Below are positions 26,914-62,954 of a DNA stretch of 64,000 nt, piece by piece. Origin of the DNA: Solirubrobacterales bacterium (lineage in GTDB: Bacteria; Actinomycetota; Thermoleophilia; Solirubrobacterales; JBBDJG01); assembly GCA_038203635.1 (NCBI GenBank), contig JBBRDT010000004.1, forward strand, positions 4,154 through 68,153. Direction: 5' to 3'. Numbering within the stretch: position 1 is the stretch's first letter; the number at the start of each line of letters is the position of its first letter. A program made the translations under genes and the position numbers. The notes below the pieces were generated by a model that saw only the letters and a list, made by a program, of their open reading frames with translations, was not told where the DNA came from and searched no databases.

Positions 26914-29900
26914 CTACCTGCGCCCGTAGACAAGCGTGACCCGGCCCTTCGCGGTGTTCGCGTCGCCGATCTTGAGGGCCGCGTTCGCGCCGAGGCGCCG
27001 GGCCTTGCGGATCTTCCTGACCTCGGACTTCGAGAACTTCACCCGGATCGACTTCGACTTCTTGCCCTTGATCGTGAACTTCCCGGCCCCCGTGGCGCCC
27101 TTGGCCTTCAGCGTGAGGCGCCCCTTGCAGCTCTTCGAGCGCTTGCAGCGCACCTTCACCTTCGCCACGCCGCTCTTGGTGACCCGCACCGTCCCGCCGG
27201 ACATTGACGCCGCGCGCAGGTCGGACTCCTCGCAGCCGCGGATCTCCAGCCGTGGCTTGGTGGTGACCTGCTTGCCGCTGTGCGACGTGAACGTGGCATC
27301 GAAGCGGCGATCGTCGTCCTTAGCCGTACAGAGATCCTCGAAGTTGTTGAGGATGCCGCCCTTGCCGCCGTCGAGGTTCAGCTCGAAGTAGGACTGCGGC
27401 AGGTCGGGCACCAGCTCGAAGGTGTTGATGATCCGCCGGCCGCCCAGGAAGCTGTTGCGGGCCTTCAGCAGCACCTCGAGACCGGTCGGCCCGCGCAGGT
27501 ACACGTACACCTTGGGCAGCACGCTCCCGATCTCCTGCACGATGTGGACCGGCCCGGAGATCGGGTACGGCAGCAGCGGCGAGAACGCGCGCGCGTTGCC
27601 GACCTTCGACTTCGCGGGGCAGGTGTCGGTCGCTGCCTGCATGTCGTTGCAGAGCGCGCCGGGCTCGTTGAAGAAGGGCACGTTCGGCCGCAGGATCGCC
27701 GGCAGCACGACGCGGGCGTTCGTGATGTCCGCCTCGCCGGCCTCCTGCGTCACGATCGCCTGGAACGGCGGGTGGTCGAACTGGTCCGTCTGTCCCGCGG
27801 CGCCGGCGATCAGGCGGAGGTCGGGACCGAACGGCAGCGCTGCGCACGCGTCTGCGTCGAGCGCGATGCTCGATGAGGACTCGCCGCCCTCGTCGCCGAA
27901 GAATGTCGCCGTCAGGGTGCGTGGCTCGCATCCGGTCGGATTGAGGAAGAAGCCCGGGCGGTCCACGAGGATCTCGACCCGCTTGATCGGCAGCGGCACA
28001 CCCTCGAGCATCGTCGGGATCTCGGTGGAGACCACCTCGAGGCCGTTGTCGGAGTCGCGCAGGTAGATGCGGTTCATCAGCACCACCTGGCCGAGGTCGA
28101 TCGGGCCGACCTTGGCCGGCACCCGCACGGCGATCGAGGCCGCGTCACCGGGTTGGATCGCCTCGGAGAGATAGAGCTCGCCCGGCACCGTCAGCAGGCT
28201 GCCGTCGACGCCCACCGTGTTGCGGATCGTGCCGATCCGCGTGGACTCGGGGCAGGTTCCTGCCTGGGCGTCGGCCAACGAGCACTGCGGCGCCGCCGCG
28301 AGGCTGCCTGCCGCGCCCGCGGGCAGCGACAGCTTCAGGCTCTTCAAATTCTGGTCGCCGTCGGGACGCGAGAACACGATCCGCGAGAGCGAGTTCGCGC
28401 CCGCCCGCTTCGGAATGCCCTCGGCAACCTCGACCACGGGGTTGAACGGCCGCGGGGAGGGAGCGCATCCGGTCGTCGTGACCGACGGAACCGGCATCAC
28501 CGGGGCCTCGGTGTCGACGCTCGGGTCGCTGGAGTTGGTCTTGCCGTTCCAGCCGACCAGGCTCGCTGCCCCTTCGTAGGTCCCACAGTCGTTCGGGTTC
28601 CTGAGGATCGCGCGCCCGTCACCGCGCAGGTTCACGTCGAGGCGCGTGAACGGCACCTCGGGCTGGTTCTTGAAGCTGTTGCTGACCTGGCCGTCTTCGG
28701 ACACGGTCACGTCGCCCGACAGCTTGATGCGCAGGCCTGCGCCCTCGATCAGGAGGAACAGCTTCCACGGGTCGTCGGTCGTCGGACGGCCGGGGCCGCC
28801 GACGGGGCCGAAGAATGCCTTCCCGTGAAGCGGCGAGTCGAGTACCGGGCTGGTGACGTCGATCGTGCCGATCTGGGAGCCCTCGGGACACTCGGGCGCA
28901 GCGCGGTTGAGCTGCTTGCCGGTGGTGGGATCGACGCCGAACTGCGTGAACGAGCAGGCCTCGAGGCCGTAGCCGCCGGCCGGGTTCAGCACCATGCCCT
29001 CGGGCAGCGTGATGTTCGCGTCCTTGAGGTTGGCCTGCCAGATGTCGGCGTCCGCGTAGTCCGGGTACTCGAGCGTCACCGTGTTACTCCCGGCGGCGCC
29101 GGACGCGGTCGTCTCCGTGGGGGTCACCGACACGGCCGTGTCGAACGGCTCCGCGTCGCAGCCCGTCGGCGTGAAGCTGCTGGTGAGGGATTTTGTTTCG
29201 GGGTTGACCGCCCACGACCTCGCCGAGAGCTTGGCAGTGGCCGGCTTGCACGAAGTCGGGTTGCGGAAGAAGGGCCGCGTCGGCGCCAACGGCTGCACGC
29301 TGGTCGGATCATCGGTGTTGGTGGCCTTGCAGGGCACCTGCGCGCACAGCACGGTCTCGATTTGGATAATCGACGCGACCGGTCCGCCGAGGTTCTTGGG
29401 AATGTCGATCAGCGCCGAGTCGAGCCCGTAATCGCCCTCCGTGCGGAGGTCGATCTTGATCGGGAGGGGGCCGGACGGTTCGGACGGGAATATCCCCGTC
29501 CCCAATCGCGCCGGCTCGAGGCCGAGGGTCGCGACGTTGTAAAGCCTTGTCGGGACGCGGAGCGGGAATTGGGACGCGTTCGCGGTCTCGACCACCGTCG
29601 ACGTGACCGACTGCCCGAGGATCGACCGGTCTGGACACGAATTGGCGATCCACAGGAACGTGGGACAGGTCTCGAGCGCGGTCGGGTTGCCGAGGACGCC
29701 GGGCGGCAGCTCAAGCTTGAAGGCCGCCAGTTTCGATCCATACTGCTCCACGCTGCAGCCCATCGGCGTGTCGCTCGAGGCGATCTGGGCGTACGCGCGG
29801 GTTGCGTACACATTGTCGGCATTGCCCGTGAACCTCGTGTGAATCCTGAACCTCAGGGGGTCGGTGCCGCCGGTCCCCGTTATTGCATCCGAAAACCACA

Positions 29901-30264
29901 GGCCGTTGGCCTCGGGGATGGATGCACCGCGGATCTTCACGGCCGTGAATGTCCCCTGCATACCGTGGGGAGTCGCAGTCGTGACGATGAACGGGCCGGG
30001 CTCCGGCGTGGATGTCGGGTCGTCGAGCACGATGTCCGTGATCTCGTTTCCGGGATTGCAGAACCTGAAGAAGAGCCCCATGTTGGGGTTACCGCCCGCC
30101 TGCGTGGGCGGGTACGCGTGCGGGGTGCTCAGCGGCTTCATCTGGAACTCGGTGACGTCGAGCTGGGCGGTGTCGTCGGTCACCTGGGCACGCGCAACCG
30201 CGCCCCACATCGCGGCGAGGAACATCGCGCTCACCAGCGCCATCGTGATCAGCGGCCGCTTCAT
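26914..30264 (-). CDS. Large secreted protein with four Cys-containing tandem modules and a basic C-terminal domain
   Basis: Signal peptide MKRPLIT...AVARA; four repeats of LP...C...CP..S.[IV]G...N...C; K/R-rich last ~95 aa. Confidence 0.85.
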   Translation of the reverse strand: MKRPLITMALVSAMFLAAMWGAVARAQVTDDTAQLDVTEFQMKPLSTPHAYPPTQAGGNPNMGLFFRFCNPGNEITDIVLDDPTSTPEPGPFIVTTATPHGMQGTFTAVKIRGASIPEANGLWFSDAITGTGGTDPLRFRIHTRFTGNADNVYATRAYAQIASSDTPMGCSVEQYGSKLAAFKLELPPGVLGNPTALETCPTFLWIANSCPDRSILGQSVTSTVVETANASQFPLRVPTRLYNVATLGLEPARLGTGIFPSEPSGPLPIKIDLRTEGDYGLDSALIDIPKNLGGPVASIIQIETVLCAQVPCKATNTDDPTSVQPLAPTRPFFRNPTSCKPATAKLSARSWAVNPETKSLTSSFTPTGCDAEPFDTAVSVTPTETTASGAAGSNTVTLEYPDYADADIWQANLKDANITLPEGMVLNPAGGYGLEACSFTQFGVDPTTGKQLNRAAPECPEGSQIGTIDVTSPVLDSPLHGKAFFGPVGGPGRPTTDDPWKLFLLIEGAGLRIKLSGDVTVSEDGQVSNSFKNQPEVPFTRLDVNLRGDGRAILRNPNDCGTYEGAASLVGWNGKTNSSDPSVDTEAPVMPVPSVTTTGCAPSPRPFNPVVEVAEGIPKRAGANSLSRIVFSRPDGDQNLKSLKLSLPAGAAGSLAAAPQCSLADAQAGTCPESTRIGTIRNTVGVDGSLLTVPGELYLSEAIQPGDAASIAVRVPAKVGPIDLGQVVLMNRIYLRDSDNGLEVVSTEIPTMLEGVPLPIKRVEILVDRPGFFLNPTGCEPRTLTATFFGDEGGESSSSIALDADACAALPFGPDLRLIAGAAGQTDQFDHPPFQAIVTQEAGEADITNARVVLPAILRPNVPFFNEPGALCNDMQAATDTCPAKSKVGNARAFSPLLPYPISGPVHIVQEIGSVLPKVYVYLRGPTGLEVLLKARNSFLGGRRIINTFELVPDLPQSYFELNLDGGKGGILNNFEDLCTAKDDDRRFDATFTSHSGKQVTTKPRLEIRGCEESDLRAASMSGGTVRVTKSGVAKVKVRCKRSKSCKGRLTLKAKGATGAGKFTIKGKKSKSIRVKFSKSEVRKIRKARRLGANAALKIGDANTAKGRVTLVYGRR

Positions 30265-30274
30265 CCTCTAGCCC

Positions 30275-33139
30275 TCACTTCCCCGACGTCCGCAGAGTCA
30301 AAGTGGTCCGGTTGGTGCGCATCGCCGCGTTGGCAGCGTCACGGCGCACCTTCAGCACAGCCTGAACACGCAGCCGCTTCTTGCGCTTGATGACGTTGCG
30401 CCCGCTCTTCGCGACGCGCATTGACACGGTCAGCCGCCCGAGCGTGCCGGAGAAGGACTTCCGGCCGAGGTTCAGGCGGCGCGCCTTGCCTTTGCCGGAC
30501 TTCACACGCCCGGCGCTGCGAAGCTGGATCGTTCCCCTGGCTTTGAAGGCGCAGGTCATGCGCAGCCGCACGAGACCGCTGCGCGACATCTTCACCGACC
30601 TCGATGTCGGGACACAGATGCCGGCCTGCCGGACTCCGCTGGCCTCGCAGCCGGAGCCGATCTCGTCGGACGGATCCGCCGTGGTCTTGTCGGTACCGCC
30701 TCCGCAGGTGGCCGCGCCGGCTGCGCCGTCTGCGATGTTGATCTTGTCGTCGCCCGATCCGGTGCGCACGCTCTCGACGTCGGTGCGGACCTGATCGTTC
30801 TCGCCCTTTTCGCCGTCGTCCGGCGCTCCAAGCGTGTCCACCGTCACGTCGCCGCTGCGACTTGCATAGGAGACCACGTCGACCCCGTCGCCGCCGGACA
30901 TGGTGTCTGCGCCGAGGCCGCCGTCGAGGACGTCGGTCCCCGTGAAGCCGCGGAGGGTGTCGTTGCCCGCGCCCCCGTTAAGCATGTCGTCGCCCTCGGC
31001 GCCGTCCAGCGTGTCGCCGCCCGCGTCGCCGTTGATGATGTCGTTCCCGAGGTCGCCGGCGAGCCAGTCGTCACCCTCCGCTCCGGAGATCCGGTCGTTG
31101 CCGGCGCGGCCGTTGATGAAGTTGTTCTTCGCGTCGCCGGTCAGCACGTCGTCGAACGCGGACCCGCCGATGCTCTCGACGTCACCCGCGATCACGTCGT
31201 TCTCGCCAGCCATCCCGTCGCCGCCCGGTGTCGCGAGGGACACGTCGACCGGGCCGGGGTGCCCAAAGTACTCGGCGGTATCGACGCCCACGCCGCCGAC
31301 GAGGAGATCCGCTCCACGCCCGCCGTTCAAAATGTCGTTGCCGCCGCCGCCGTCGATGAACCCGTCACCGTCGTTGGCGTTGAGCCTGTCGTTGTCGAGG
31401 CCCCCGATCAGGCTTTCGATCGAGCCCGCCACGTTGTCTCCCGCGCCGGTGCTGCCGTCGTCGGCGGCGCCGTTGAGCGTGACACTCACGGGAGTCGTGG
31501 CGTCCGAGAAGTCCGCTGTGTCGCTACCGTCGCCGCCCTCATAGGAGTCGCCGCCGAAGCCGCCGAACAGATAGTCGTCGCCGAGGCCGCCGTCCATGAC
31601 GTCGCCACCCTCACCGCCCTCGAGGGTGTCGGCGCCCGCGTCGCCGCCGAGCTGGTCGCCGCCGCCGTGACCTTGGATCTGGTCGTCTCCGGGGCCGCCG
31701 AGCAGCACATTGGGGCCCGAGTCGCCCTTCAGGATGTCATTGCCGTTCCCGCCGATCACACCCTCGACGTCGGGCATGATCTGGTCGCTCACGTTGTTGG
31801 CCGGGTTCAGGTCGCGAGCAGACCCGTCGTTCGCCGCGCCGTCGAGCGTGGCAGTGACCGCATCTGCGCGACCCTCGTACGAGGCCGCGTCGAAAAGACC
31901 GTCGCCTCCGATCAGGACGTCGCCTCCGAGGCTGCCGTCCAGCACGTCGTTGCCGCCGCCACCGTTGAGGACGTTCTCGCCCGCGGGCTCGACCCGCGGA
32001 CCCCGACCGTAGAGCGCGTCGGGGTCGTTGCCGACCAGCACGTCGTCGTAAGGAGAGCCGACGACGTTCTCGATGTCCTCGCCTATGCAGTCGTTCTCGC
32101 CGGGGACGCCGTCATCGGCCGTACAGTCGCGGCGCAGCTCGGGCTCGCCCGGAGCGAGCCCTGCCGGATCCTTCCGGCAGGACGCGACCGTGAGGTAGGA
32201 GTCGGCGAGGCAGGGCTTGCCGTTGAACGAGCCTCCCTTTTGCGTGGGGCGGCAGTCCTTGCGCGCTCCGAGCGACAGAATCGCGTCGGTGGAGAAGACG
32301 TCCGGATCGGTCGCGAGCACGCCGTCCAGCGTGACCGTCACGCCCTGGGGGTGGTCCGAGTATTCGACGGTGTCCTTGCCCACACCGCCGCAGATCGTGT
32401 CCGAGCCTGGGCCCCCGTCGAAGGTATCAGGGCCGAGGCCGCCGATCAGCTCGTCGTTGCCCATGCCGCCCACGATCCTCTCGATGCCGATGAGGCCGTC
32501 GGTCGTTGTGTCGTCATCGGTGGTCCCGCCTGCCCCCGGCTCGAGGTCTACCTTGATCGACCCCGTGCGGTCCTCATATGTGGCTGTGTCGAATCCCCGT
32601 CCGCCGTTCACCGTGTCCGCGCACCGACGCGTCCCGGTGGTTCTGCAGGTGGCGGGGTCGATGCCGCCGGTGCCGCTGTTGAGCACGTCGTTGTCGCCGG
32701 ACTCGCCGTCAGCGGTGTCGCCGAAGAGGTTGTCAGGACCCGCGCCGCCGTGGAGGAAGTCTTTACCGAGACCACCGTTGATCGTGTCTGCGCCGGAGCT
32801 GCCCCTAAGGCTGTCGTCACCGTCCAATCCGTTGATGATGGCCTCGTTGACGGTGGCTGAGGTGCAGGTGACGTCGACGCCCGCTTGTAGACACCCGGCA
32901 CCGGCAGTGACGCCGGCCGCGTCCGACACGGTGTAGACGCCACCGACGCCGCCGGAGACGCTGACCGTGATCACGTTGTTGGCGGCGTCGCCGTCGACGA
33001 TCACCTTGGCCCCGGCGACCCGCGCCGTCGTTGCGAGCGCGCCGGCCGGAAACGCCGCGAGCAGCACGAGAGCCGACACCACCACGATGCGGAGCGCAGT
33101 CGCGCGGCCGCTCAGACCCACTACCTCGATCTTTCTCAC
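30275..33139 (-). CDS. Secreted calcium-binding protein with many hemolysin-type (RTX) GGxGxD repeats and a basic C-terminal domain; start uncertain (33139 or 33121)
   Basis: Sec-type signal ...LVLLAAFPAGALA; numerous GGxGxDxL nonapeptides; K/R-rich C-terminus. Confidence 0.88.
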   Translation of the reverse strand: MRKIEVVGLSGRATALRIVVVSALVLLAAFPAGALATTARVAGAKVIVDGDAANNVITVSVSGGVGGVYTVSDAAGVTAGAGCLQAGVDVTCTSATVNEAIINGLDGDDSLRGSSGADTINGGLGKDFLHGGAGPDNLFGDTADGESGDNDVLNSGTGGIDPATCRTTGTRRCADTVNGGRGFDTATYEDRTGSIKVDLEPGAGGTTDDDTTTDGLIGIERIVGGMGNDELIGGLGPDTFDGGPGSDTICGGVGKDTVEYSDHPQGVTVTLDGVLATDPDVFSTDAILSLGARKDCRPTQKGGSFNGKPCLADSYLTVASCRKDPAGLAPGEPELRRDCTADDGVPGENDCIGEDIENVVGSPYDDVLVGNDPDALYGRGPRVEPAGENVLNGGGGNDVLDGSLGGDVLIGGDGLFDAASYEGRADAVTATLDGAANDGSARDLNPANNVSDQIMPDVEGVIGGNGNDILKGDSGPNVLLGGPGDDQIQGHGGGDQLGGDAGADTLEGGEGGDVMDGGLGDDYLFGGFGGDSYEGGDGSDTADFSDATTPVSVTLNGAADDGSTGAGDNVAGSIESLIGGLDNDRLNANDGDGFIDGGGGNDILNGGRGADLLVGGVGVDTAEYFGHPGPVDVSLATPGGDGMAGENDVIAGDVESIGGSAFDDVLTGDAKNNFINGRAGNDRISGAEGDDWLAGDLGNDIINGDAGGDTLDGAEGDDMLNGGAGNDTLRGFTGTDVLDGGLGADTMSGGDGVDVVSYASRSGDVTVDTLGAPDDGEKGENDQVRTDVESVRTGSGDDKINIADGAAGAATCGGGTDKTTADPSDEIGSGCEASGVRQAGICVPTSRSVKMSRSGLVRLRMTCAFKARGTIQLRSAGRVKSGKGKARRLNLGRKSFSGTLGRLTVSMRVAKSGRNVIKRKKRLRVQAVLKVRRDAANAAMRTNRTTLTLRTSGK

Positions 33140-33502
33140 TCTCCCAAGAACCTCTCCCGCGTCCCTTGCGAGACGCCCCCTCGAAACATACCTAATTGGA
33201 GGGGAAACGCGTCGGCTGTCGACCACGCGGTCGAACATCCGCATTGACTATAGAACCTCTATGCAGGATGTGCGCAATTTCGTCATGCGGTGCAACACCG
33301 GTAGCCCTCCCTCTCCGACCGGCACGTTCCAGACGATAAAGCAGCCCTCGAGAAGCTGCGCCAGTCGATTCAGGCGCGGCACACGAGCGGTCGGCGGCAC
33401 TACTTTTACGCGGCCCTTTTTACGCTGCAAAAACCCCGCTTAGCGGAGCAAATTAAGGGCGTCGGCAGTACCCAAAAGTACGCCACCAGAGCCAAGTTTC
33501 TG

Positions 33503-33611
33503 TGCTAGAGTCGGCCACGGTTCGCCCCTACCTAAGTTTGACGGCGAGGGGTAAATGTAATCAAAGAGCATGGAAGCTCGGACCACCCCCTTCGGGGGAG
33601 GGAGGCGTTAT
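33503..33611 (+). promoter_or_regulatory. Extended -10 promoter and structured 5' UTR
   Basis: TG-c-TAGAGT at 33503-33511; hairpins gagc-atggaa-gctc (33566-33579) and ccccc-ttcg-ggggg (33586-33599) directly before the GGAGG RBS. Confidence 0.55.
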
Positions 33612-34373
33612 ATGCGTATCAAGAAGAGGATTGCGCTGCCCATGGCTTTCGCCATGTCGGCGGTCGTGATGTTGGCGATTGCCTCGTTGGGCAACGCCAC
33701 TCACAGTGTGCCCTTGAATGCAAGTCCAATCAAGGTCTCGTTGGTGCCGGTCTACAACAACTGCCCCGGCACCGGCGGTTTGACTCACGGGACGCCCTTG
33801 GCGGCCCCGTCCTGTGCGCCGGTATTGACAGGGACAGGAGCACAGATTGCCGAACCAAGCCCCAATGGCACCTCGGCGGGCAGCGCTACGCTCAAGGTGT
33901 TGCCGGGTGTCCCGGGTCCGCCTGACGACTCCGACGTGGCGGTCAAGTCCAAGATCACGGACGTTCGCTGTGCCGCCGGCGCCACAACCGCCTGCGGTAG
34001 CGCGAATACGGCTGGGTCCCCCGACTACGTGGGTGGCCTGCAGGGGAGCGCGGTGATCCGGATCACCGACCACTACAACGGCGTGACGGGTTCGTGTCCG
34101 CCGACTTGCATAACCCCCGCAACGGTGTTCGACCTGCCGTTCTCAGTCACCTACGCCGTTGCCGGTTGCGTTGCTTCGCCGGGCGACCCCAGCATCGGTA
34201 CGAAGTGCACCGCGGACACGTCCGCTAACGCAGCGGTTCCGGGTGCGGTCAAGGATGGTCAGCGTGCCGATGTTGAGGTGCGGACCATCTTCATCAACGA
34301 CGGTGGTCCCGATGGCATCGTGTCCCCGGGTACGACCTCGCAGTTCATGACCCAGGGAATCTTCATTCCCTAG
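33612..34373 (+). CDS. Secreted protein consisting solely of the 'TQGxFxP' domain (candidate major surface/structural protein)
   Basis: GGAGG RBS, signal peptide, 8 Cys, full-length similarity to the C-terminal domain of 47822-49357. Confidence 0.85.
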   Translation: MRIKKRIALPMAFAMSAVVMLAIASLGNATHSVPLNASPIKVSLVPVYNNCPGTGGLTHGTPLAAPSCAPVLTGTGAQIAEPSPNGTSAGSATLKVLPGVPGPPDDSDVAVKSKITDVRCAAGATTACGSANTAGSPDYVGGLQGSAVIRITDHYNGVTGSCPPTCITPATVFDLPFSVTYAVAGCVASPGDPSIGTKCTADTSANAAVPGAVKDGQRADVEVRTIFINDGGPDGIVSPGTTSQFMTQGIFIP

Positions 34374-34407
34374 TCACGAGTCGAAGCGCTCACTGAGCGC
34401 GATTGGT

Positions 34408-34450
34408 AAAGACCGGGAGTGGGCCTACCACTCCCGGTCTTTCGCTATTT
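34408..34450 (+). terminator. Intrinsic terminator (possibly bidirectional)
   Basis: Perfect 15-bp stem aaagaccgggagtgg / ccactcccggtcttt with 5-nt loop, then T-rich tail. Confidence 0.85.
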
Positions 34451-34503
34451 TGGACCCTGTTTTTCTGATCCGCCTACCAACGATCTCTCGTAGGAGTCAA
34501 TTG

Positions 34504-35052
34504 ATGAAACCGCCGTTCGTCTGCAGCAGAGGCCCCCGACTGGCGCTGATCGCCGTGCTGGCACTCGGTACTGTCGCCGCGCTCGGATGCGGCGATGACA
34601 AGGGCAGTGGCAGCAGCAGTGGCAGCAGCGGCGGCAAGGGCGGTGGCAAAAGCGAGTTCGAAGTGGGTGGGAAGGTCGACCACTTCGCCGGTCCGACTCC
34701 ACTGGTGGTGCGGTTGAAGGCCACCACCAAGAACGCACAGGGCGACGTCGTTTACCGGTGGCGATTCGACGACGGGACCTCGAGCGCGAAGGCCGAGGTC
34801 ACTCATACGTTCAAGCGGGCCGGCTACTACCAGGTGCTCCTGGACGGCTACGACGAGACTGGCAAGCGCGACGTCCATGCCTTCGTCTTCGGAGCCTGGC
34901 CGCCCGGCCAGTGGGCCAGGGCCCAGGACGCCACGCTTACGCAGAAGGGCGCAGCCCGTACACAGAAGGTGCAGCAGGCGCGCACCGACAAGCGCCGCAA
35001 GGAGCTGCTTGTGGAGCTGCGTCGCAAGGCGCGCGAGCAGATCGCGGGCTGA
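34504..35052 (+). CDS. PKD-domain lipoprotein, copy 1
   Basis: AGGAG RBS, lipobox ALGC, G/S linker, PKD motif YRWRFDDG...HTF..AGYYQV. Confidence 0.85.
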   Translation: MKPPFVCSRGPRLALIAVLALGTVAALGCGDDKGSGSSSGSSGGKGGGKSEFEVGGKVDHFAGPTPLVVRLKATTKNAQGDVVYRWRFDDGTSSAKAEVTHTFKRAGYYQVLLDGYDETGKRDVHAFVFGAWPPGQWARAQDATLTQKGAARTQKVQQARTDKRRKELLVELRRKAREQIAG

Positions 35053-35065
35053 GCGCCCCTAGCGC

Positions 35066-35458: not shown

Positions 35459-35487
35459 GCGGTGCGTAACTGTATAAGGTCGCCCGC

Positions 35488-36480: not shown

Positions 36481-36557
36481 CCCGCCACTTCCGGTTTTCG
36501 CTATTTTGGACCCGGTTCTTGATCCGCTTGCCAACGATCTCTCGTAGGAGTCAATTG

Positions 36558-37070: not shown

Positions 37071-37075
37071 GCGGT

Positions 37076-37468: not shown

Positions 37469-37569
37469 GCGGTGCGTAACTGTACAGATCTGTCGGGCAG
37501 GTGGTCACGGTCCCTGCAGCCACGCGGAAGCACACGACCACGATGCTAATGTCGCCGCCCTTGGGAGCC

Positions 37570-38604: not shown

Positions 38605-38959
38605 ACGAGCGCCTGAGGAGCTGCGCCGCGAAGAACAGCAACAGGCAGGCGAACCCGACCTCGAGGGACCGCTCGGAGACGTTGTTTGCGATCACCGTGC
38701 CGGCGACCACGCCAAGTGGGGAGAGCGCGCCGATCACGCCCGCGTCCTTCAGGCGCACATTGCCGTACCCGTACTGGCGCCAGGTGCCGACGAGCGCGAC
38801 CAGCACGATGGACACGAGCGATGTTGCCTCCGCCTCGAGCTGCGACTGGCCCATGAAGATGGACAGGGCGGGGACGAACAGGATCCCCCCGCCGACGCCG
38901 ACGAGGCCGCCGACCGCACCGGCGAAGAGCCCGAGCAGGATGGCGGCGAGCTCGCTCAA
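38573..38959 (-). CDS. Half-size TauE/SafE (TSUP) membrane protein B
   Basis: TTGA overlap start; GGLVGVGGG, ATSL; about 4 TM segments. Confidence 0.8.
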   Translation of the reverse strand: MSELAAILLGLFAGAVGGLVGVGGGILFVPALSIFMGQSQLEAEATSLVSIVLVALVGTWRQYGYGNVRLKDAGVIGALSPLGVVAGTVIANNVSERSLEVGFACLLLFFAAQLLRRSFREPAADEKP

Positions 38960-39339
38960 CCGATCAGCAGCTTGATTGCGACGCCAACGAGCAGCGCTGC
39001 GAACAGCAGCGACACGGCCCGGCCCGACAGGCGTTGCTGCAGGGCGGTGCCGGCAACCACCCCCGCGATGGCGGGAGCGCCGACCAGGAATCCCTTGCCG
39101 AGGTCGACGTTGCCGTATGCGCCGTGGGCAATCGCCGCGAACAGCCCGATCAGTACGATCGCGGCGAGCGACGTGCCGGTGGCGACGTGCTCGGAGTACC
39201 CGAACCACAGCACGAGCATCGGCACGATCACGGTGCCGCCGCCAACCCCGAACAGCCCGCTGAACGTCCCCGCCACGGTGGCGACGAAAGCAAGCTTCAG
39301 GAGGCGCGGCCCGGACTCGCTCGGGGATGGCCCGGACAT
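38956..39339 (-). CDS. Half-size TauE/SafE (TSUP) membrane protein A
   Basis: SGLFGVGGG..IVP, ATGTSL; about 4 TM segments. Confidence 0.82.
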   Translation of the reverse strand: MSGPSPSESGPRLLKLAFVATVAGTFSGLFGVGGGTVIVPMLVLWFGYSEHVATGTSLAAIVLIGLFAAIAHGAYGNVDLGKGFLVGAPAIAGVVAGTALQQRLSGRAVSLLFAALLVGVAIKLLIG

Positions 39340-39360
39340 GGTCCGGGATACTAGAGCCGC
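39340..39360. promoter_or_regulatory. Overlapping divergent leaderless promoters
   Basis: Only 21 bp between divergent ATGs; GATACT (+) and TAGTAT (-) each lie 8 nt from a start; no RBS. Confidence 0.55.
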
Positions 39361-40173
39361 ATGACGCCGCTTCCCGGCACGGCCACGGCCGAGCGCCTGC
39401 TCGCTCCTCTCCGCGAACGACCGCAGCGCTCAGCCATCCTCTGCGACATCGACGGCACCCTCGCGCCGATCGTGGAGCGCCCCGAGCTCGCGACCGTGCC
39501 ACCCCGCGCAAGACACCTGCTGGAGCAGCTGTCGACCCGTTACGGGCTCGTCGCCTGCGTGTCGGGCCGCCGCGCGACGGTCGCGCGGCAGATGGTCGGC
39601 ATCGATGGGCTCCTCTACGTCGGCAACCACGGGCTCGAGCGGCTGGAGCCCGGTTCCGAGGTGGCCGTGCTCAACCCGGAGATCCAGCCGCTCGCCGAGC
39701 GCGTCCGCCGGTTCGCGGCCGAGCGCTTCACTCCGGAGTTGGAGCGGCTCGGGATCACACTCGAGGACAAGGACGCGATCTGGACCTTCCACTACCGGCG
39801 CGCCGGCGACGAGGATGCGGCCCGCGCGGCGCTGGAGGGCGTGGCGCAGGGTGCGCACGCCGCCGGGCTTGACCCGCACCACGGACGGAAGGTCCTCGAG
39901 ATCAGGCCCACCGCAGCCGTGGACAAGGGCACGGCCGTGGCGGGAGTGCTCGAGGGCCGGGAACTCTCCCGGGCTCTGTTCGGCGGAGACGACACCACCG
40001 ACGTGGACGCTTTCCGGCGGCTGCGAGAGCTGGCCGGCGAAGGTGCACTCGAGGGTGTGGTGTGCGTGGGCGTCGCGTCGGCCGAGACCCCGGCGGCGGT
40101 CGTCGAAGAGGCGGACCTGGTCGTCGAGGGCACGGAGGGCTTCCTGCGGATCCTCGAGAGCCTGGCCGCCTGA
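39361..40173 (+). CDS. otsB: Trehalose-6-phosphate phosphatase
   Basis: HAD DIDGTLAPI, VSGR, GNHG, HYR, EIRP..DKG, GDDTTDVDAF. Confidence 0.92.
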   Translation: MTPLPGTATAERLLAPLRERPQRSAILCDIDGTLAPIVERPELATVPPRARHLLEQLSTRYGLVACVSGRRATVARQMVGIDGLLYVGNHGLERLEPGSEVAVLNPEIQPLAERVRRFAAERFTPELERLGITLEDKDAIWTFHYRRAGDEDAARAALEGVAQGAHAAGLDPHHGRKVLEIRPTAAVDKGTAVAGVLEGRELSRALFGGDDTTDVDAFRRLRELAGEGALEGVVCVGVASAETPAAVVEEADLVVEGTEGFLRILESLAA

Positions 40174-49357: not shown

Positions 49358-49367
49358 CGGGGACGCG

Positions 49368-50690
<1,323 letters not shown>

Positions 50691-53770: not shown

Positions 53771-53784
53771 CCCCGGCTCCCCGG

Positions 53785-55313: not shown

Positions 55314-55334
55314 CCCGCGCCGCGGTGATCCGTC

Positions 55335-55973: not shown

Positions 55974-55976
55974 CTA

Positions 55977-56210
55977 CTAAAGGCCCGAGAAGCCGACCTT
56001 GTGGTCGGGGGACTCGAGCTTCATGAACACGACCTGGCCGAGATCGAGCGAGACCACACCGTCAGCCGTCTCCACCTCGATCCATCGCTTGGCATCCTGG
56101 ACGGCGCGCCGCAGCTGCTCATAGGCCTTGTTTTCCAGCCGCACGAGGATCACCTGACCACCCGAAAAGCCGACCTCGATGCGCCGCATCTCGCCGCCAT
56201 CGCGCGCCAC
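55977..56210 (-). CDS. Small hypothetical protein (possibly DUF3107-like; start 56210 or 56189)
   Basis: Fills the gap in a co-directional operon; RRIEVGFSGGQ...KVGF. Confidence 0.65.
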   Translation of the reverse strand: MARDGGEMRRIEVGFSGGQVILVRLENKAYEQLRRAVQDAKRWIEVETADGVVSLDLGQVVFMKLESPDHKVGFSGL

Positions 56211-56212
56211 GA

Positions 56213-56626
56213 TCAGTGAGCCCCCTCGGCCGGCTGCACGAGCTCGGTCAGCACACCGCCGGTGGAGGCAGGATGGAGGAACGCCACGAGGCTGTCGCGA
56301 ATGCCGCGGCGCGGCACCTCGTCGATCAGTCGCAGCCCTCGCGAGCGGCATTCCTCGATCGCGATCGCGACGTCCTGGCAGCGGTACGCGGTGTGATGCA
56401 GGCCGGGACCCTTCTTGGCGAGGAACTTGCCGACCGGCGTGTCGCCGCCGAGCGGGGCCAGCAGCTCGACATGTGACTCGCCGACGCCGAGGAGAACGGC
56501 CTCCACGCCCTGCTCGGTCACGGTCTCGCGGTGCTGGACCGGCATTCCGAAGGTGTCGGCGTAAAGCGTGACTGCGGCGTCGAGGTCCTCCACGGCCACG
56601 CCGACGTGGTCGATCGACTGGAACAT
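56213..56626 (-). CDS. mce: Methylmalonyl-CoA epimerase
   Basis: IDHVGVAV, VELLAP, GPGLHH.AY, FLHP..TGGVL.ELVQ. Confidence 0.92.
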   Translation of the reverse strand: MFQSIDHVGVAVEDLDAAVTLYADTFGMPVQHRETVTEQGVEAVLLGVGESHVELLAPLGGDTPVGKFLAKKGPGLHHTAYRCQDVAIAIEECRSRGLRLIDEVPRRGIRDSLVAFLHPASTGGVLTELVQPAEGAH

Positions 56627-56640
56627 CGGCCGGGGAGTCT

Positions 56641-56669
56641 AGTGATCGGCCCCCGCGGGGCCGATCACT
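56641..56669. terminator. GC-rich hairpin after the FtsH-like gene
   Basis: agtgatcggcccc-cgc-ggggccgatcact, 13-bp perfect stem; no clear U tract. Confidence 0.55.
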
Positions 56670-56682
56670 GCAGCCGGTGGTA

Positions 56683-58323
56683 CTACCGAGTGGTCCGCGA
56701 GGAGGTGGGCAGCATCGGCGGCGGAACGCTTTCGCGATGCGCACGCGGAGCCCCCATCGGCTCGGCGGCGTCGGGCACGAACTCCTCGTTGAACACCTGC
56801 TCGGGCCGCCTGCCGATCGACGGCAGGGTCACGACCACGTCGAACGGGCTGTCCTCACGCGGGCGGGCGCTTACGCCGGTGACCAGCTCGGTGAGCTCGT
56901 CGCGCTCGATCGACTCCTTCTCGAGCAGCGTCTGCGCGATGCTGTCAAGCAGCTCGCGGTTCTCGCTCACCAGCACGTGAGTCTCGAACAGCGCCGCATC
57001 GATCAGCATCTGCTGCTCTTGGTCGCGCGCCTCCATTGTCGCCTGCGAAGTGTTCTCGCCGATCCCCTCGAGGTGCGCCAGCAGCTTGCTGCCCATGCCG
57101 TACTGCGCGATCATCGAGCGGCTGATCTCGGCGACACGCCGCAGATCGTCAGAGGCTCCGGTCGTGACACGCTCGAACACGATCTGCTCGGTGACGTAGC
57201 CACCCAGCAACATCTTCATGTAGTCGAGCAGGTCCTCCTTCGACATCAGGTAACGGTCCTCCTCGGGCAGGTTGAGCGTGTAGCCCAGCGCCTGTCCGCG
57301 CGGCACGATCGAGATCTTGTGCACCTTCGGCACCGAGGGGAGCATCTCGGAGACCATGGCGTGACCCGCCTCGTGATAGGCGATGATCCGCTTCTCGCTC
57401 GGCATCATGACGCGACGCGTCTGCATCCCGGCGATAACACGCTCCAGAGCGTTGTCGAAGTCGACCTGGTGAATCGTGTCGCGACCTTCGCGACCGGCGT
57501 GAATCGCGGCCTCGTTGCAGAGGTTCGCGAGGTCGGCGCCCGTCAGCCCTGACGTGCGACGCGCCACCATGACCAGGTCCACGTCGGCCACAGGCATCTT
57601 GCGGCTGTGCACCTTGAGGATCGCCTCGCGACCGTCGAGGTCGGGCGGCGACACCAGCACCTGGCGGTCGAAGCGGCCGGGCCGCAGCAGAGCGGGGTCG
57701 AGACCGTCGATGCGGTTCGAGGCCGCGATCACGATCACGTCGCTCCTGTCCGCGAAACCGTCCATCTCGACGAGCAGCTGGTTCAGCGTCTGATCCTTCT
57801 CACGCGAGATGTCGAAGCCGCGCTTGAGGCCGACCGCGTCGATCTCGTCGATGAAGATGATCGCCGGAGCGTGATCCTTGGCGATCTGGAACAGGCGCCT
57901 GATCCGGGCAGCGCCCAGGCCGGCGAACATCTCGACGAACGAGCTCGCCGACTGGCTGAAGAAGTGCGCGCCGGACTCCTTGGCGACAGCCTTCGCCAGC
58001 AGCGTCTTGCCCGTGCCGGGCGGGCCGTGCAGCAGGATTCCCCGCGGTACGCTCGCGCCCAGGCTCTTGAACCGGTCCGGCGTGCGCAGGAATTCGACGA
58101 CCTCGCGGAGCTCGTCCTTGGCCTCTTCGCAACCCGCCACGTCGTCCCAGCCGATGCCACCGGAGGACTCTGGCTTGACCTCCTGCGGCTTCGTGCGCGG
58201 CATCATCTTGAGGCTGCGCCAGATCAGGTAGACCAGCGCGCACATCAAGATGATGGGCATCCAGGTGAGAGCCCAAGACTCCACCTTGTCCATCAAACTC
58301 ATGCCTGCTGCGAGCGGAAGCAT
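56683..58323 (-). CDS. FtsH-like AAA+ zinc metalloprotease with single N-terminal TM
   Basis: [37 protein letters not shown]. Confidence 0.9.
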
Positions 58324-58450
58324 CCTTGCTCCAATCCATCGCGCAACCCGGGGGAGGGTTTGCTAGTCAGCCAAGGGAGCCACGGAGGTGCGGCTCGGAT
58401 TCAGCGTAAAGGCGATTTCGAGCGATTGCTAGTAAATCTGTCCACTGCGC

Positions 58451-59287
58451 TCAAGTTTCTCGGCGGAGTATCTCGATCATCGCCGCACGACCCACTTCGA
58501 GCTGCTCCGGAGTCGGCTCGCGGGTCGCGAACAGGCGCTGTATCTCGTAGCCGGGCCTGCGGAAAGCCTGAGCGAGCGCGGTGTCGTGGTGGCGTTCGGA
58601 CCAGGCGAACATCTCGACCGACACCGCGACCCCTGCCAGCGTGACCGCAGCGCCGGCCACCGGGCCACGCAGGCCAAGCACGGAGCGCACCAGCAGATTG
58701 CCCACCACCGTGGAGACGATCATCGGGGCAACGAGGTTGGAGCCACACCGGTCGTGCTCCTTCGCGACGAGCGCGGCGTCGGTGTCCTGCTCATAGCCCG
58801 CGATCGCCTTGTGCTCCACGCCGTGGTAGGCGGCGAGCTGTGAATCGTGCAGGGCAAAGGCCGTGGGCGCGAGGCCGAGCGCGGCGACGGCGAGCTCGTT
58901 GCCGGCGGTGCGGCCTCCCAGGCGCCGAGCGCCGGCCGTGACCACCGACGATGCGAGCATGGCGGCCAGCACCTTCCCGTCCTCGAACGGAAGCTGCACC
59001 TCGGGCACGCGCCGCTTGATCACGGGCAACAGCGCAAACGCCTCGCCCAGGCGGGCAATGCCGCGCACGCCCGGCAGGTCGGCGAGGCTTCCTCGGAAGC
59101 GCGGCTTGGCGCCGGACTCCACGCGCAGGGCACCGTCCTTCGAGCGCAGCGCAACAGCCCAGTGGTCGGGCCCGTGCACGAGCAGGCCGTTGCGCAGCGC
59201 CATGCCGCCGAGTCGCACCTTCACAGGCGACGTCTCCGGACCGGCGCCGTTGCCGGCGAAGGCCGGCATCTCGTCGTGGTGGGTCAC
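58451..59287 (-). CDS. DUF1385 family protein
   Basis: LGGMAL.NG, YHGVEHKAI, HDRCGS, Q..AT.EP. Confidence 0.8.
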   Translation of the reverse strand: MTHHDEMPAFAGNGAGPETSPVKVRLGGMALRNGLLVHGPDHWAVALRSKDGALRVESGAKPRFRGSLADLPGVRGIARLGEAFALLPVIKRRVPEVQLPFEDGKVLAAMLASSVVTAGARRLGGRTAGNELAVAALGLAPTAFALHDSQLAAYHGVEHKAIAGYEQDTDAALVAKEHDRCGSNLVAPMIVSTVVGNLLVRSVLGLRGPVAGAAVTLAGVAVSVEMFAWSERHHDTALAQAFRRPGYEIQRLFATREPTPEQLEVGRAAMIEILRRET

Positions 59288-59308
59288 TCCGGCAATGCTA
59301 GTGACCAA

Positions 59309-60055
59309 CTACGTCAGCGCGTCCGCCACCATCGCGGCCGCGGCCACGAGCAGGATGCATCCGACGGCTTGTAGCAGCGCCCTGTCGGACAGGCGCCCGG
59401 TCAGCCGCGACCCCAGCAGGGCGCCGGGGATCGACGCCGCCGCGCCCACGGCGAGCACGTCCCAATCGGGCGGTTTGGAGGGCAGGTGCCCGATCACACC
59501 CGCGACGCCGACGAGGAACCCGATCGTGACGTTGGTGCCCACGGCACGGGCCGGGACCTCCCCAACGACCTTGACGAGCGCGGGCATTCGCAGCGACCCC
59601 AGGATCAGGCCCACGATGCCGCCCAGCACGCCGATCACCAGGCCGGTGACCACGGCGGCCCGGATGTCGAGGCCGTCCTGCTCTTCGCGGCGGGGCTTCG
59701 GCTCCGGCTTTCGCAGCAGCTCGATCCCGCTGTAGAGGAGCACGGCGGCGATCACGAATAGCAGCAGGTTCCCCGGCAGCACTCCGGATACGTAACCGCC
59801 GGCCAGCGCTCCCACGATCGAGGGCGGGGCCATCCACCGGAACAGGCGCCAGTTGACGCGGCCCGCTCGGATGTGGGCGATGGATGCGGTGCCGGCCGCG
59901 ACCGCGCTGATCCCGATGTTCGCGCCCGTCCCCGCCCCCGGAGAGGTGGAAAGAAGGAGTACGGCGGGCAGGCGGATGTTGCCAAGCACGAGGCCCACCA
60001 ACCCCCCGGCAAGGGCCACGGCAAAGCACCAGATCGCGAGCAGCACGTATTCCAT
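59309..60055 (-). CDS. TauE/SafE (TSUP) membrane protein, full length
   Basis: Two internal repeats GG.VGL.LG..R.PA...GTN/GAN; about 8 TM. Confidence 0.82.
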   Translation of the reverse strand: MEYVLLAIWCFAVALAGGLVGLVLGNIRLPAVLLLSTSPGAGTGANIGISAVAAGTASIAHIRAGRVNWRLFRWMAPPSIVGALAGGYVSGVLPGNLLLFVIAAVLLYSGIELLRKPEPKPRREEQDGLDIRAAVVTGLVIGVLGGIVGLILGSLRMPALVKVVGEVPARAVGTNVTIGFLVGVAGVIGHLPSKPPDWDVLAVGAAASIPGALLGSRLTGRLSDRALLQAVGCILLVAAAAMVADALT

Positions 60056-60072
60056 TGGGGATACTGAGGACG
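60056..60072. promoter_or_regulatory. Overlapping divergent leaderless promoters
   Basis: 17 bp between ATG 60055 (-) and TTG 60073 (+); GATACT (+) overlaps CAGTAT (-). Confidence 0.5.
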
Positions 60073-61416
60073 TTGGAGAGGCTTTTCGACACGGACGACA
60101 GCGCCCCGCGGCGCACGCCGGTCCCGCTCGAGGACGAACCCCTCGCGGCGCGTATGCGGCCGCGGGAGCTGAGCGACTTTATCGGGCAGGACCACGTGCT
60201 TGCTGCGGGGTCCGCGCTGCGCACGGCGATCGAGACCGGCGAGCCGCACTCGATGATCCTGTACGGGCCGCCGGGGAGTGGAAAGACGACACTCGCTCGG
60301 ATCGCCGCCACCCATGCCGGTGCCGCCTTCGAGGAGGCGAGTGCCGTGAACGCCGGCCGTGCCGAGGTGAGAGCTGTGATCGAGCGTGCAAGGGAGCGCC
60401 GCCGCTCCTCCGGCACCGGCTCGCTGTTCTTCCTGGACGAGATCCACCGCTTCAACAAGGCACAACAGGACACGTTGCTGCCCGCCGTCGAGGAAGGTCT
60501 CGTGATCCTGATTGGCGCCACGACCGAGAACCCATACTTCGAGGTCAACTCCGCACTGCTCTCCCGCTCCCAGATATACGAGCTGCGGCCACTCACGGCC
60601 GAGCAGGTCGCCGACCTGCTGCGCCGCGCGCTGGCAGACCCGGAGCGGGGCATTCCCGACCCGCCGCAGGTGCCCGAGGAGGCGATCGAGTTCCTCGCAG
60701 CGCGTTCCGGGGGCGACGCGCGGGCCGCCTACAACGCCTTGGAGCTTGCGAGCGACACCGCACGGCGACTCGGGCGGCCGGTCTCGGTCGAGCTTGCCGA
60801 GGACGCGATGCAGAAGAAGGCGGTCCTCTACGACAAGGGCGGGGACAAGCACTACGACTACATCTCGGCGTGGATCAAATCGACGCGTGGCTCGGATGTC
60901 GACGCATCCCTCTACTACCTGGCCGTGATGCTCGAGGGCGGCGAGGATCCGCGCTTCATCGCGCGCCGGATGATCGTGCTCGCGTCCGAGGACATCGGCA
61001 ACGCAGACCCGCAGGCACTACTCGTCGCGGTCGCTGCAGCGCAGGCGGTCGAACACGTGGGCATGCCGGAGGCTGCTCTCAATCTCAGCCAGGCGGCCGC
61101 CTACCTCTCCCTTGCGCCGAAATCCAACGCGAGCACCACTGCCATCGCGCGAGCGCGCGGTGACGTGCAGCGCGACGGTGCGGCAGACCCGCCCCCGCAT
61201 CTGCAGGACTCCCACTATCCCGGTGCCAAGCAGCTCGGGCGGGGGGTCGGATATGAATATCCGCACGATCTCGCCGAGGGCGTATCCGAGCAGAACCTGA
61301 TGCCCGAAGGGCTCGAGGATCGGCGCTACTACGAGCCCACCGAACGGGGCTTCGAGGCCACGTTGCGGGAGCGCCTTGTCAGTCTTTTGCGGAAACAGCG
61401 CAAATCGGGCAATTAG
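60073..61416 (+). CDS. rarA: Replication-associated recombination protein A (MgsA)
   Basis: PLAARMRP, GPPGSGKTT, DEIHRFNKAQQD, GATTENPYF, KSTRGSD, ASEDIGNADP. Confidence 0.95.
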   Translation: MERLFDTDDSAPRRTPVPLEDEPLAARMRPRELSDFIGQDHVLAAGSALRTAIETGEPHSMILYGPPGSGKTTLARIAATHAGAAFEEASAVNAGRAEVRAVIERARERRRSSGTGSLFFLDEIHRFNKAQQDTLLPAVEEGLVILIGATTENPYFEVNSALLSRSQIYELRPLTAEQVADLLRRALADPERGIPDPPQVPEEAIEFLAARSGGDARAAYNALELASDTARRLGRPVSVELAEDAMQKKAVLYDKGGDKHYDYISAWIKSTRGSDVDASLYYLAVMLEGGEDPRFIARRMIVLASEDIGNADPQALLVAVAAAQAVEHVGMPEAALNLSQAAAYLSLAPKSNASTTAIARARGDVQRDGAADPPPHLQDSHYPGAKQLGRGVGYEYPHDLAEGVSEQNLMPEGLEDRRYYEPTERGFEATLRERLVSLLRKQRKSGN

Positions 61417-61484
61417 CCACTAGTCTGATTGAGCCGATGGGATGTAGTCGTAGGCAGGGATCGGCCACGCTTTTGCATGTCCGA

Positions 61485-62954
61485 GTGGGGGTACTACGCC
61501 TGGGTCTGACCCTGGTTGCCTCACTCATGCTGGCGTTGGTCGTGGCCAAGCCGGCAATGGCCGGAACGGCCCGCGTGATAGCCGCGGGTGGCAAGGTCAC
61601 GCTCGAATACGTCGCCCTGGACGGTGAGACGAACACCGTCACGATCACCCAGAACACCGGCTCGTACACCGTGACCGATGCGACCGCGCCGGTCAGTGCC
61701 CCGGTCGGAGAGGGATGCACAGTCGCGGCTGGCGTGGCGACCTGCGCCGATCCGAGCACGCTGGGCGCGATCCAGGCGATCAAGGTCGACCTGGGCAACT
61801 TCGACGACGCGGTCGACATCGATGCTTCCGTCCGCTCAGAACTGCTCGGCCGTGCAGGCGCCGACAATCTCACCGGAGGCGATGGCGTTGACTTCGTCAA
61901 CGGGAATGCCGGCGCCGACACGATCAACGTCCGCGGCGCAGGACGGGATACGGTGCTGTCATGCGACGACCCCGGTGACGCGGTGATCTCCGATCCGGAC
62001 GACACCGTCGCGGCCACCTGTACCGACAACAACGTCGCCCCCGCGACCACCGTCACCAGTGGCCCGGCCCCGGTCACGAACGACACGACGCCCTCTTTCT
62101 CGTTCGCCCCGGTGCTGCCCAAGGAGAACGTGACCGGCTTCGAGTGCATGGTCGAGCCGATCGACGACGGTGTCTTCGGCTGCGGCACACCGTTCCAGGA
62201 GACGGCCGAGCTTGCGGACGGCCCCTACGTCCTCCGGGTACGAGCTCTCGACGACGCCCCGGGAGCAGGGCCTTGGACGCTTTACGGCTTCAGAGTCGAT
62301 ACGACCGAGCCCCAGGTCAACGTGACCGGTCCGCTGGCCAGCACCACGGCGCAGACGACCTTCGACCTCTCGTCGAACGAGACCGTCACCTTCGAGTGCG
62401 CACTCGATCAAGCTGCCTTCGCCGCGTGCGGCTCCCCCTACACCACCCCCGTGCTGGCCAACGGCTCATACGTCATGGCCGTGCGTGCCACGGATGCGGC
62501 AGGCAACCAGGCCACTGCCGAGTTCTCGTTCACCGTGCAGGTGACGGCGGGTGGAGGAGGTGGCGGCGGCGGCGCGCCGAACCCGCCGGTCCAGCCACGG
62601 CGCATCATCATCGAGTCCCTCGTCTTGATTTCGGGCCGGGCAGTGAAGATGTCGCGCAAGGGTGAGGTGTCGATCGGGCTGCAGTGCGCCGGTACCAATA
62701 GCTGCAAGGGCCGCATGACCATCACGACCGCCGAGCCCACTAAGCGCAGGAGCAGGAAGCTGGAACGGCTTGGGTCCGTGAAGTTCTCGATCGCAGCAAA
62801 CAAGAAGAAGAACGTGAAGGTGCGCTTCTCCAAGAGCAAGCGCAAGCTTGCCAAGCGGCTGAAGCGCTTCAAGGCGAAGGTCGTGATCACCGAGGTCGAC
62901 CAGCGCGGCAACGCGCGCGTCTCGAGTCGCGTCTTCGTTCTGCGCGCTCGCTGA
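61485..62954 (+). CDS. Secreted protein: N-terminal Cys-pair domain, short Ca-binding repeats, Ig-like domains, basic C-terminal domain (start uncertain)
   Basis: Signal peptide ...AKPAMA, GxxGxDxL repeats, FEC.LD...C.SP and VRATDAAGN Ig-like motifs, poly-Gly linker, K/R-rich tail. Confidence 0.83.
   Translation: MGVLRLGLTLVASLMLALVVAKPAMAGTARVIAAGGKVTLEYVALDGETNTVTITQNTGSYTVTDATAPVSAPVGEGCTVAAGVATCADPSTLGAIQAIKVDLGNFDDAVDIDASVRSELLGRAGADNLTGGDGVDFVNGNAGADTINVRGAGRDTVLSCDDPGDAVISDPDDTVAATCTDNNVAPATTVTSGPAPVTNDTTPSFSFAPVLPKENVTGFECMVEPIDDGVFGCGTPFQETAELADGPYVLRVRALDDAPGAGPWTLYGFRVDTTEPQVNVTGPLASTTAQTTFDLSSNETVTFECALDQAAFAACGSPYTTPVLANGSYVMAVRATDAAGNQATAEFSFTVQVTAGGGGGGGGAPNPPVQPRRIIIESLVLISGRAVKMSRKGEVSIGLQCAGTNSCKGRMTITTAEPTKRRSRKLERLGSVKFSIAANKKKNVKVRFSKSKRKLAKRLKRFKAKVVITEVDQRGNARVSSRVFVLRAR

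Follow-up and report, generated by a model that had tools for sequence, protein, structure and literature searches.

What keeps an exported protein at the surface of a cell when it carries none of the usual wall anchors? The question arises in a 64,000-nucleotide stretch of contig JBBRDT010000004.1 (positions 4,154 to 68,153; 68% G+C), called the window below, from a Solirubrobacterales bacterium whose genome (G000) consists of 3.33 Mb in 151 contigs and is 83% complete. Three genes in the window, those for P0001, P0002 and P0003, encode otherwise different exported proteins that share a C-terminal tail of about 105 amino acids (aa), of which 30–32% are Lys or Arg. This tail is an uncatalogued, strictly C-terminal module, one homologous folded domain, and judged by its sequence it appears to behave like a portable retention module on exported proteins. 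The bacteria concerned, Thermoleophilia-type soil actinobacteria, are abundant in soils, rarely cultured and hardly described with respect to their cell envelope.

The original prediction described three open reading frames (ORFs) with alignable, very basic ends, attached to acidic or neutral passenger regions and lacking LPxTG, transmembrane anchor and SLH motifs. All three frames are present in the ORF set, and the description of their products is borne out. Over the last 110 residues, Lys and Arg together account for 30.0%, 30.0% and 30.0% of P0001, P0002 and P0003 (Lys 17, 11 and 16%; Arg 13, 19 and 15%), compared with 5.9–7.7% elsewhere in the same proteins. The tails have a net charge of +28 to +32 and a pI of 12.0, while the passengers have a pI of 4.1–4.8. 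The three ends align as V[KR]M[ST][RK]xG ... C ... G.[LM].[LI] ... G..F ... [KR][VF]..SK ... R[LF], and the local BLOSUM62 scores of the tail pairs are 76, 122 and 95, relative to a shuffle mean of 40–42 and a shuffle maximum of 70. As none of 500 composition-preserving shuffles reaches the observed score (z 4.6, 11.4 and 7.9), the likeness reflects homology and goes beyond charge or composition. Each protein has a single hydrophobic segment, the N-terminal signal peptide, and in P0002 the true start is probably internal, directly ahead of this segment. None of the three contains an LPxTG motif, a transmembrane anchor or an SLH domain.

The tail family and its distribution

Copies in the host genome were counted by searching its six-frame ORFs. 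A profile built from the three tails, the genome-wide count that the original prediction had proposed, finds five copies at E≤1e-3, all at the extreme C-terminus, and a deeper 40-sequence profile (A2) finds eight, so that the tail is not confined to the three proteins of the window. All eight proteins have one N-terminal signal-like hydrophobic segment and no other, and none of them shows a C-terminal transmembrane segment, a C-terminal hydrophobic 19-mer or an LPxTG motif. About two dozen further ORFs of the genome have very basic ends, 100 residues long, that belong to other sequence types. Four ORFs (contig:position C3:29024-29770, C32:29279-31924, C10:29050-30171 and C34:6913-9129) carry a sister-type basic C-terminal tail, VPGA.K ... 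AG ... L.L.L.K ... AL ... D..GN; such tails match the deep profile weakly, and the C34 ORF gives no match. The genome's true number of polycationic Ig-like tails is probably higher than eight. Two exoprotein-like ORFs, C1:16734-18026 (-) and C73:13244-14086 (-), end in another very basic, Cys-flanked motif, the second of them some 3 kb away from the sortase gene at C73:9721-10083.

In public sequences, a five-tail profile compared with 1.84 billion cluster representatives retrieves 2553 protein cluster representatives at E≤1e-3 and 127 at E≤1e-10. The position is again terminal, as the original prediction supposed: among the 150 best representatives, the last tail copy ends no more than 5 residues short of the C-terminus in 136 and no more than 15 short of it in 145, and 11 of the 150 have two tandem copies. 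The passengers, by comparison, are diverse. A Pfam scan of 96 of these 150 (short fragments and the last 28 left out, counts made by hand) assigns RTX repeats to 34, Big_13 to 27, PKD to 6, subtilase to 2 and DUF11 to 2, leaving 34 with no family; Calx-beta, FG-GAP, NHL and beta-propeller modules are also seen, and none of the listed Pfam stretches falls inside the tail. One public gene call, P0103, fuses the N-terminus of ribosomal protein L6 (Ribosomal_L6, E 0.00022) to the tail domain and is probably a gene-calling or assembly artefact.

The tail does not belong to a catalogued family. Neither Pfam nor NCBIfam places a family on the tails of P0001, P0002 and P0003, and when 40 tails were scanned singly against Pfam at E≤1, no family matched more than 5 of them and none exceeded its cut-off. 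On the full-length proteins, Pfam finds no domain above cut-off in P0001; P0002 has ten RTX nonapeptide stretches, and P0003 an RTX repeat with a Big_13 domain. Membership of DUF4402 (PF14352) was considered and rejected: the P0001 match of 18.2 bits (E 0.0042) lies under the curated cut-off of 25.2 bits, and matches occur in only 3 of the 40 tails, the best at E 0.00081. The Atlas holds only unnamed Actinomycetota clusters for both the tail and the P0001 passenger, and literature searches returned no description of the tail domain or of the envelope of this bacterial group.

With the first profile, the tail is found in 34 of 41 relatives, including 16 of 17 from the same family. In an even sample of the class it occurs in 33 of 121 genomes, concentrated in the host's own order and in family f7 (12 of 21) and nearly absent from four other families. 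In a sample of the phylum it is detected at E≤1e-5 in 8 of 201 genomes, all eight from the same class, and there is no match in the genomes of this sample labelled as same phylum outside the class. Among the genomes searched, the domain is thus restricted to part of one Actinomycetota class, in agreement with the lineage specificity originally proposed. Related genomes in these and the following tallies are non-independent samples; one of them (G008) is unpublished and adds one genome to the relatives' counts of tails, sulfotransferases and P0001 homologues, and no claim depends on it alone. With at least 2553 protein clusters bearing it, a portable polycationic C-terminal domain of this kind would account for much of the surface proteome of these organisms. 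Annotators would gain a localisation marker, and the domain merits a Pfam or NCBIfam entry.

Predicted fold and known wall-binding modules

AlphaFold2, run on the 40-sequence alignment, predicts an Ig-like beta-sandwich of eight strands and one short helix (residues 87–96), with a predicted local distance difference test score (pLDDT) of 89.2 and a predicted template modelling score of 0.78. In the predicted structure one Cys-Cys pair usually spans a hairpin; the P0002 tail lacks the second Cys of this pair. The tail of P0001 has the same sandwich and helix (1079–1088) in a full-length model. Foldseek gives 44 matches to Ig-like/FnIII-like sandwiches at E≤0.001, the best with E 7e-5 and a template modelling (TM) score of 0.54. 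VIA returns a top Z of 9.5 and 28 chains at Z≥8, with PapD-like chaperones, GH2 Ig domains, a carbohydrate-binding module (CBM) and FnIII domains at Z 8–9.5. A porphyran-binding CBM (8wae_B) scores Z 8.9, along with dozens of unrelated chains at the same level, and was left out of the argument.

The charge follows a regular pattern on this predicted fold. Along the strands of the 40-sequence alignment, hydrophobic and basic columns strictly alternate, and columns 87, 91, 95, 97 and 98, on and around the helix, are 88–98% Lys or Arg. Across the family, Lys and Arg occupy outward-facing strand positions, above all in the strand-helix-strand segment near the end.

In behaviour, the nearest known counterpart would be the C-terminal wall-binding region of Lactobacillus S-layer proteins, a region that is presumably basic. 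The last ~130 residues of SlpA and CbsA bind (lipo)teichoic acids, and this SLAP-type region resembles the tail in being C-terminal and in holding non-covalently to anionic wall polymers, the ligand class supposed for the tail (PMC4232325). It differs in having no Pfam sequence match to the tail and in belonging to a different lineage, and the tail is a single predicted Ig-like sandwich found on many passengers and not on S-layer proteins only. CWB2 (PF04122) and SLH (PF00395) domains would be analogous in role, as both are non-covalent anchors, which is the function proposed for the tail, on many different exported proteins. According to a review, proteins with these domains bind anionic or pyruvylated wall polysaccharides, conserved Arg residues are implicated, and three adjacent copies act together as a trimer-like unit (PMC5817068). 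The tail, in contrast, is present in one copy, rarely two, is a predicted beta-sandwich and has no sequence match to either. SLH was not matched in the three proteins at E≤0.1, in 40 tails at E≤1 or in the whole genome (83% complete), nor does this genome, at that completeness, contain a PF04230 match that would indicate a CsaB-type pyruvyl transferase for the SLH ligand. CWB2 likewise has no match in the three proteins, the 96 representatives or the 40 tails. The same review lists LysM, WXL, SH3 types, SPOR, CW-7, PGB1/2, CWB1, CWB2, SLH and ChW as non-covalent wall-binding modules of single-membraned bacteria (PMC5817068). Pfam matches to LysM, WXL, SH3-5/6/8, SPOR, CW-7, PGB1/2, CWB1 and ChW are absent from the three proteins and the 40 tails (E≤1).

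Two further systems invite comparison. The GW modules (SH3-8) of Listeria InlB and Ami, which bind lipoteichoic acid and heparin-like polyanions, would parallel the tail in being basic, C-terminal and responsible for non-covalent surface retention, as proposed here. They differ in their SH3-like fold and repeated arrangement, with no Pfam match on the tail. Their own wall target is called controversial in the review (PMC5817068). The C-terminal domain (CTD) of type IX secretion substrates is, like the tail as predicted, an Ig-like sandwich of comparable size that occurs strictly at the C-terminus, on exported proteins of many kinds. It is, however, a cleaved secretion signal of the two-membraned Bacteroidota and is not polycationic, and no Pfam or NCBIfam profile of it matches the tails. 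A match of P0003 to the PorU model NF033707 (E 0.065) was rejected as a CTD, since it lies in the Big_13 region (335–368), outside the tail. Membership of the SLH, CWB2, GW, LysM and type IX CTD groups was rejected for want of any profile match on the tails, and the tail proteins were also rejected as sortase substrates: there are two sortases in the genome, but the eight proteins lack both the LPxTG motif and the C-terminal hydrophobic segment. The tail is best described as a new domain family with a function that is probably of a known kind, and it differs from the others in its fold, single copy and extreme charge.

Proposed electrostatic retention, sulfation and alternative readings

The most plausible explanation, to which we give a probability of about 0.5, is that the tail is a non-covalent electrostatic anchor to a polyanion of the envelope. 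It is based on sequence, position, charge, predicted fold, distribution and synteny, and in particular on the fact that dense positive charge is the sole conserved surface property of the tail. Across the 150 best representatives, tail pI ranges from 10.1 to 12.0 (median 12.0) and the median net charge is +29, while K/(K+R) varies from 0 to 0.86, indicating that positive charge is conserved as charge and not as residue identity. Of the 100 representatives whose passengers are 100 aa or longer, 93 have a passenger pI below 6. After export, the polycationic tail would make multivalent electrostatic contacts with a polyanionic envelope component, for which a wall-linked glycopolymer or a lipoglycan is a candidate. 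The protein would thereby be kept at the surface without a covalent bond, and an acidic RTX or Ig-like passenger would be repelled outward. For the host and its family relatives, a candidate polyanion is the presumed sulfated and methylated glycan of the neighbouring gene cluster. Some observations weigh against this explanation. A profile built from basic tails favours basic matches, which affects the charge statistics just given; the fold matches level off among Ig-like, FnIII-like and PapD-like sandwiches, none of which stands out, and structure therefore gives no pointer to function; the two sortases make covalent anchoring available to the cell; and high positive charge would suit DNA, acidic lipids, matrix polysaccharide or mineral surfaces equally well. 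Should the anchor role prove true, the tail would be a simple single-copy tag for the display of proteins on such cells.

A more specific explanation is suggested by the surroundings of the genes, namely that the tail recognises the sulfated glycan of the adjacent sulfotransferase/cysC cluster and that both belong to one lineage-specific display system. The stop codon of P0001 (26914–26916) lies 27 bases beyond the stop of the convergent adenosine 5'-phosphosulfate (APS) kinase gene, cysC (ORF end 26886), and P0002 is the next gene, so it is correct that two of the three tail genes abut the sulfation cluster; the gene for P0003 is ~35 kb off, within housekeeping genes. The cluster contains several glycosyltransferase family 2 (GT2) genes, a PglK/MsbA-type ATP-binding cassette (ABC) exporter/flippase protein, a family 4 glycosyltransferase (GT4), three Sulfotransfer_3 domains, several methyltransferases, YdjC and cysC. 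This cluster and the tail genes lie side by side; their membership in one common system is only a candidate relationship. The host genome has an ATP sulfurylase (contig C42), which with cysC makes a complete route to 3'-phosphoadenosine 5'-phosphosulfate, together with nine Sulfotransfer_3 matches and two LCP ligases for attaching wall glycopolymers; TagF-type and pyruvyl-transferase (PF04230) matches are absent from it at 83% completeness. The gene order (sulfotransferase ... YdjC - cysC, convergent P0001-like tail gene, then P0002-like tail gene) recurs in all 7 chosen family loci that contain the cluster, from genera g1, g2, g3, g4 and g6, despite P0001 identities down to 44–57%. Eight family loci had been fetched, seven of them with the cluster, and since they were picked for tails near sulfotransferases this conservation is not that of a blind sample. 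In 12 of 17 family relatives the tail pair is 9–20 kb from sulfotransferase genes on the same contig, and the conserved basic helix of the tail may resemble heparin-binding motifs.

The wider distribution of sulfotransferases counts against such specificity. Co-occurrence with them, the test originally proposed, turned out negative in the class sample, where the same 121 genomes were searched for the tail and for Sulfotransfer_3 (threshold 1e-8): 10 have both, 23 the tail only, 21 a sulfotransferase only and 67 neither, with about 8.5 expected to have both if the two were independent. In the order sample of 41 genomes the corresponding numbers are 26, 8, 5 and 2. In family f2, all 11 genomes carry the tail and 2 a sulfotransferase; in family f9, 1 of 19 carries the tail and 14 a sulfotransferase. 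One genome with 19 sulfotransferase matches (G029) has no tail by either profile, and two others with 25 and 17 (G020 and G025) have none with the first profile and 1–2 weak matches with the deeper one. Conversely, G010, G027 and G031, which are 91–98% complete and carry 5, 7 and 6 tails, have no APS kinase, Sulfotransfer_1 or Sulfotransfer_3 match, other sulfotransferase families being outside the search. In G010, two P0001-like tail genes are retained in a 16-kb stretch that has neither cysC nor YdjC nor a sulfotransferase, and in the host genome only 2 of the 8 tail genes are near sulfotransferase genes, the other 6 being on other contigs or at other positions. Synteny among kin can be inherited without a functional link, and as cysC and P0001 are convergent they are not co-transcribed. 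Specific recognition of the sulfated glycan is therefore quite unlikely, and possible in this family only. Sulfation is not a requirement across the domain family, whose ligand class is accordingly given here as polyanion and not as sulfate ester. Of the surface-display domain originally predicted to bind an anionic, perhaps sulfated, wall glycan, the homologous, terminal, lineage-restricted and exported character stands, whereas the data do not support the sulfated glycan as its ligand in the form proposed. That co-occurrence does not support sulfation as a requirement is a negative outcome that counts too; if the link were true for the family, the wall chemistry would be unusual and would have its own system for docking proteins.

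The tail might also point outward, as an adhesive module for external polyanions such as extracellular DNA, acidic matrix polysaccharide, humic matter or clay, which would make its bearers matrix or substrate adhesins. The same charge data fit, several passengers are adhesin-like (RTX, PKD, Calx-beta, FG-GAP), and DNA of the stretch appears to occur in sediment, soil and permafrost metagenomes, only one of which contains most of it; no RNA data set is listed for it. The additional basic-ended ORFs of the genome suggest general surface chemistry over one specific ligand. A strictly C-terminal position, however, is typical of anchors, outward-facing binding modules being more often N-terminal or distal, and the present data fit the cell's own wall and an external ligand alike; adhesion to outside matter seems unlikely. 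A ligand-free end-domain, whose charge merely offsets an acidic passenger for solubility, folding, wall passage or cis pairing with RTX repeats, is less probable still. It would account for the acidity of most passengers, for a median whole-protein pI of 8.55, and for P0001, where the tail (+29) exactly balances the passenger (-29); but the balance is not general (-101 against +32 in P0002, -4 against +34 in the C67 protein), some passengers are near neutral (0 in the C3 protein), and tandem tails and the spread over unrelated passengers fit a portable function. It is highly improbable that the tail serves as a sorting signal which a dedicated machine recognises and cleaves off, in the manner of a type IX CTD. 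The strictly terminal position, Ig-like fold, approximate size and many unrelated exported passengers would suit such a signal, and PorU and RgpB are among the fold matches; these are tied with hundreds of other Ig-like chains, though, no Pfam or NCBIfam sorting-domain model matches the tails, the proteins already have Sec signals, and the family loci compared show no conserved partner next to the tail genes. Actinomycetota are generally single-membraned and are not known to have type IX secretion.

Within the preferred reading of electrostatic anchoring, a bolder version can be proposed for this family, which we regard as speculative and distinctly unlikely. The main wall polyanion would here be a sulfated, methylated glycopolymer that replaces teichoic acid, the P0001 Ig chain and its RTX neighbour P0002 would form a surface layer docked on it by the tail, and in sister families the tail would have been re-targeted to other polyanions. 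The docked layer would then be a bacterial counterpart of heparin-type binding between proteins and sulfated glycans.

Gene layout and minor features of the window

Table 1. Coordinates of the tail genes, their parts and the neighbouring glycan genes; E-values marked HMM are from hidden Markov model searches with the tail profile.
Feature	Position	Strand	Details
P0001 gene	26914-30264	(-)	1116 aa, ORF
P0001 signal peptide and acidic passenger, chain of Ig-like sandwiches (predicted)	27208..30264	(-)	no Pfam family
P0001 polycationic C-terminal Ig-like tail (predicted fold), stop codon included	26914..27207	(-)	HMM E 1e-28; net charge +29, pI 12
P0002 gene	30275-33244	(-)	989 aa, ORF
P0002 passenger, RTX calcium-binding repeats	30614..33244	(-)	10 stretches; net charge -101
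P0002 polycationic C-terminal tail, stop codon included	30275..30613	(-)	HMM E 2e-30; alignments; net charge +32
P0003 gene	61437-62954	(+)	505 aa, ORF
P0003 signal peptide and passenger	61437..62624	(+)	RTX repeat, Big_13 Ig-like domain, poly-Gly linker
P0003 polycationic C-terminal tail, stop codon included	62625..62954	(+)	HMM E 4e-37; modelled domain 62574-62951
Glycan biosynthesis cluster	1..26886	(.)	GT2 genes, ABC, GT4, sulfotransferases, methyltransferases, YdjC, cysC
Three Sulfotransfer_3 domains within the glycan cluster	13126-13824, 14445-15143, 16407-17117	(+)	
APS kinase (cysC), convergent with P0001	26239..26886	(+)	PF01583 E 2.4e-58

The P0001 passenger of about 1000 residues shows an internal duplication, with self-matches at 24–27% identity, and has homologues in 18 of 18 family genomes, beside shorter paralogues of ~600 aa. 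The full-length model (pLDDT 77.7) is a chain of Ig-like sandwiches with a loose likeness to S-layer and adhesin proteins. Its multi-Ig matches include an archaeal S-layer protein at a TM score of ~0.1, a likeness too weak for P0001 to count as an S-layer protein. Four orthologues are split over at least two frames, at loci L024 (G001:C2), L020 (G013:C26), L021 (G007:C5) and L025 (G016:C44); these may be assembly errors or real pseudogenes.

On the far side of P0002, a gene for a small PKD-domain protein (33570-35049, +) lies upstream of a GT4 gene, and the same pair occurs beside the P0002 orthologue in genome G016. The window also contains two genes of the TauE/SafE sulfite-exporter family, at 38959-39429 (-) and 59312-60178 (-). 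The first of these looks truncated, as profile positions 117–237 alone are matched.

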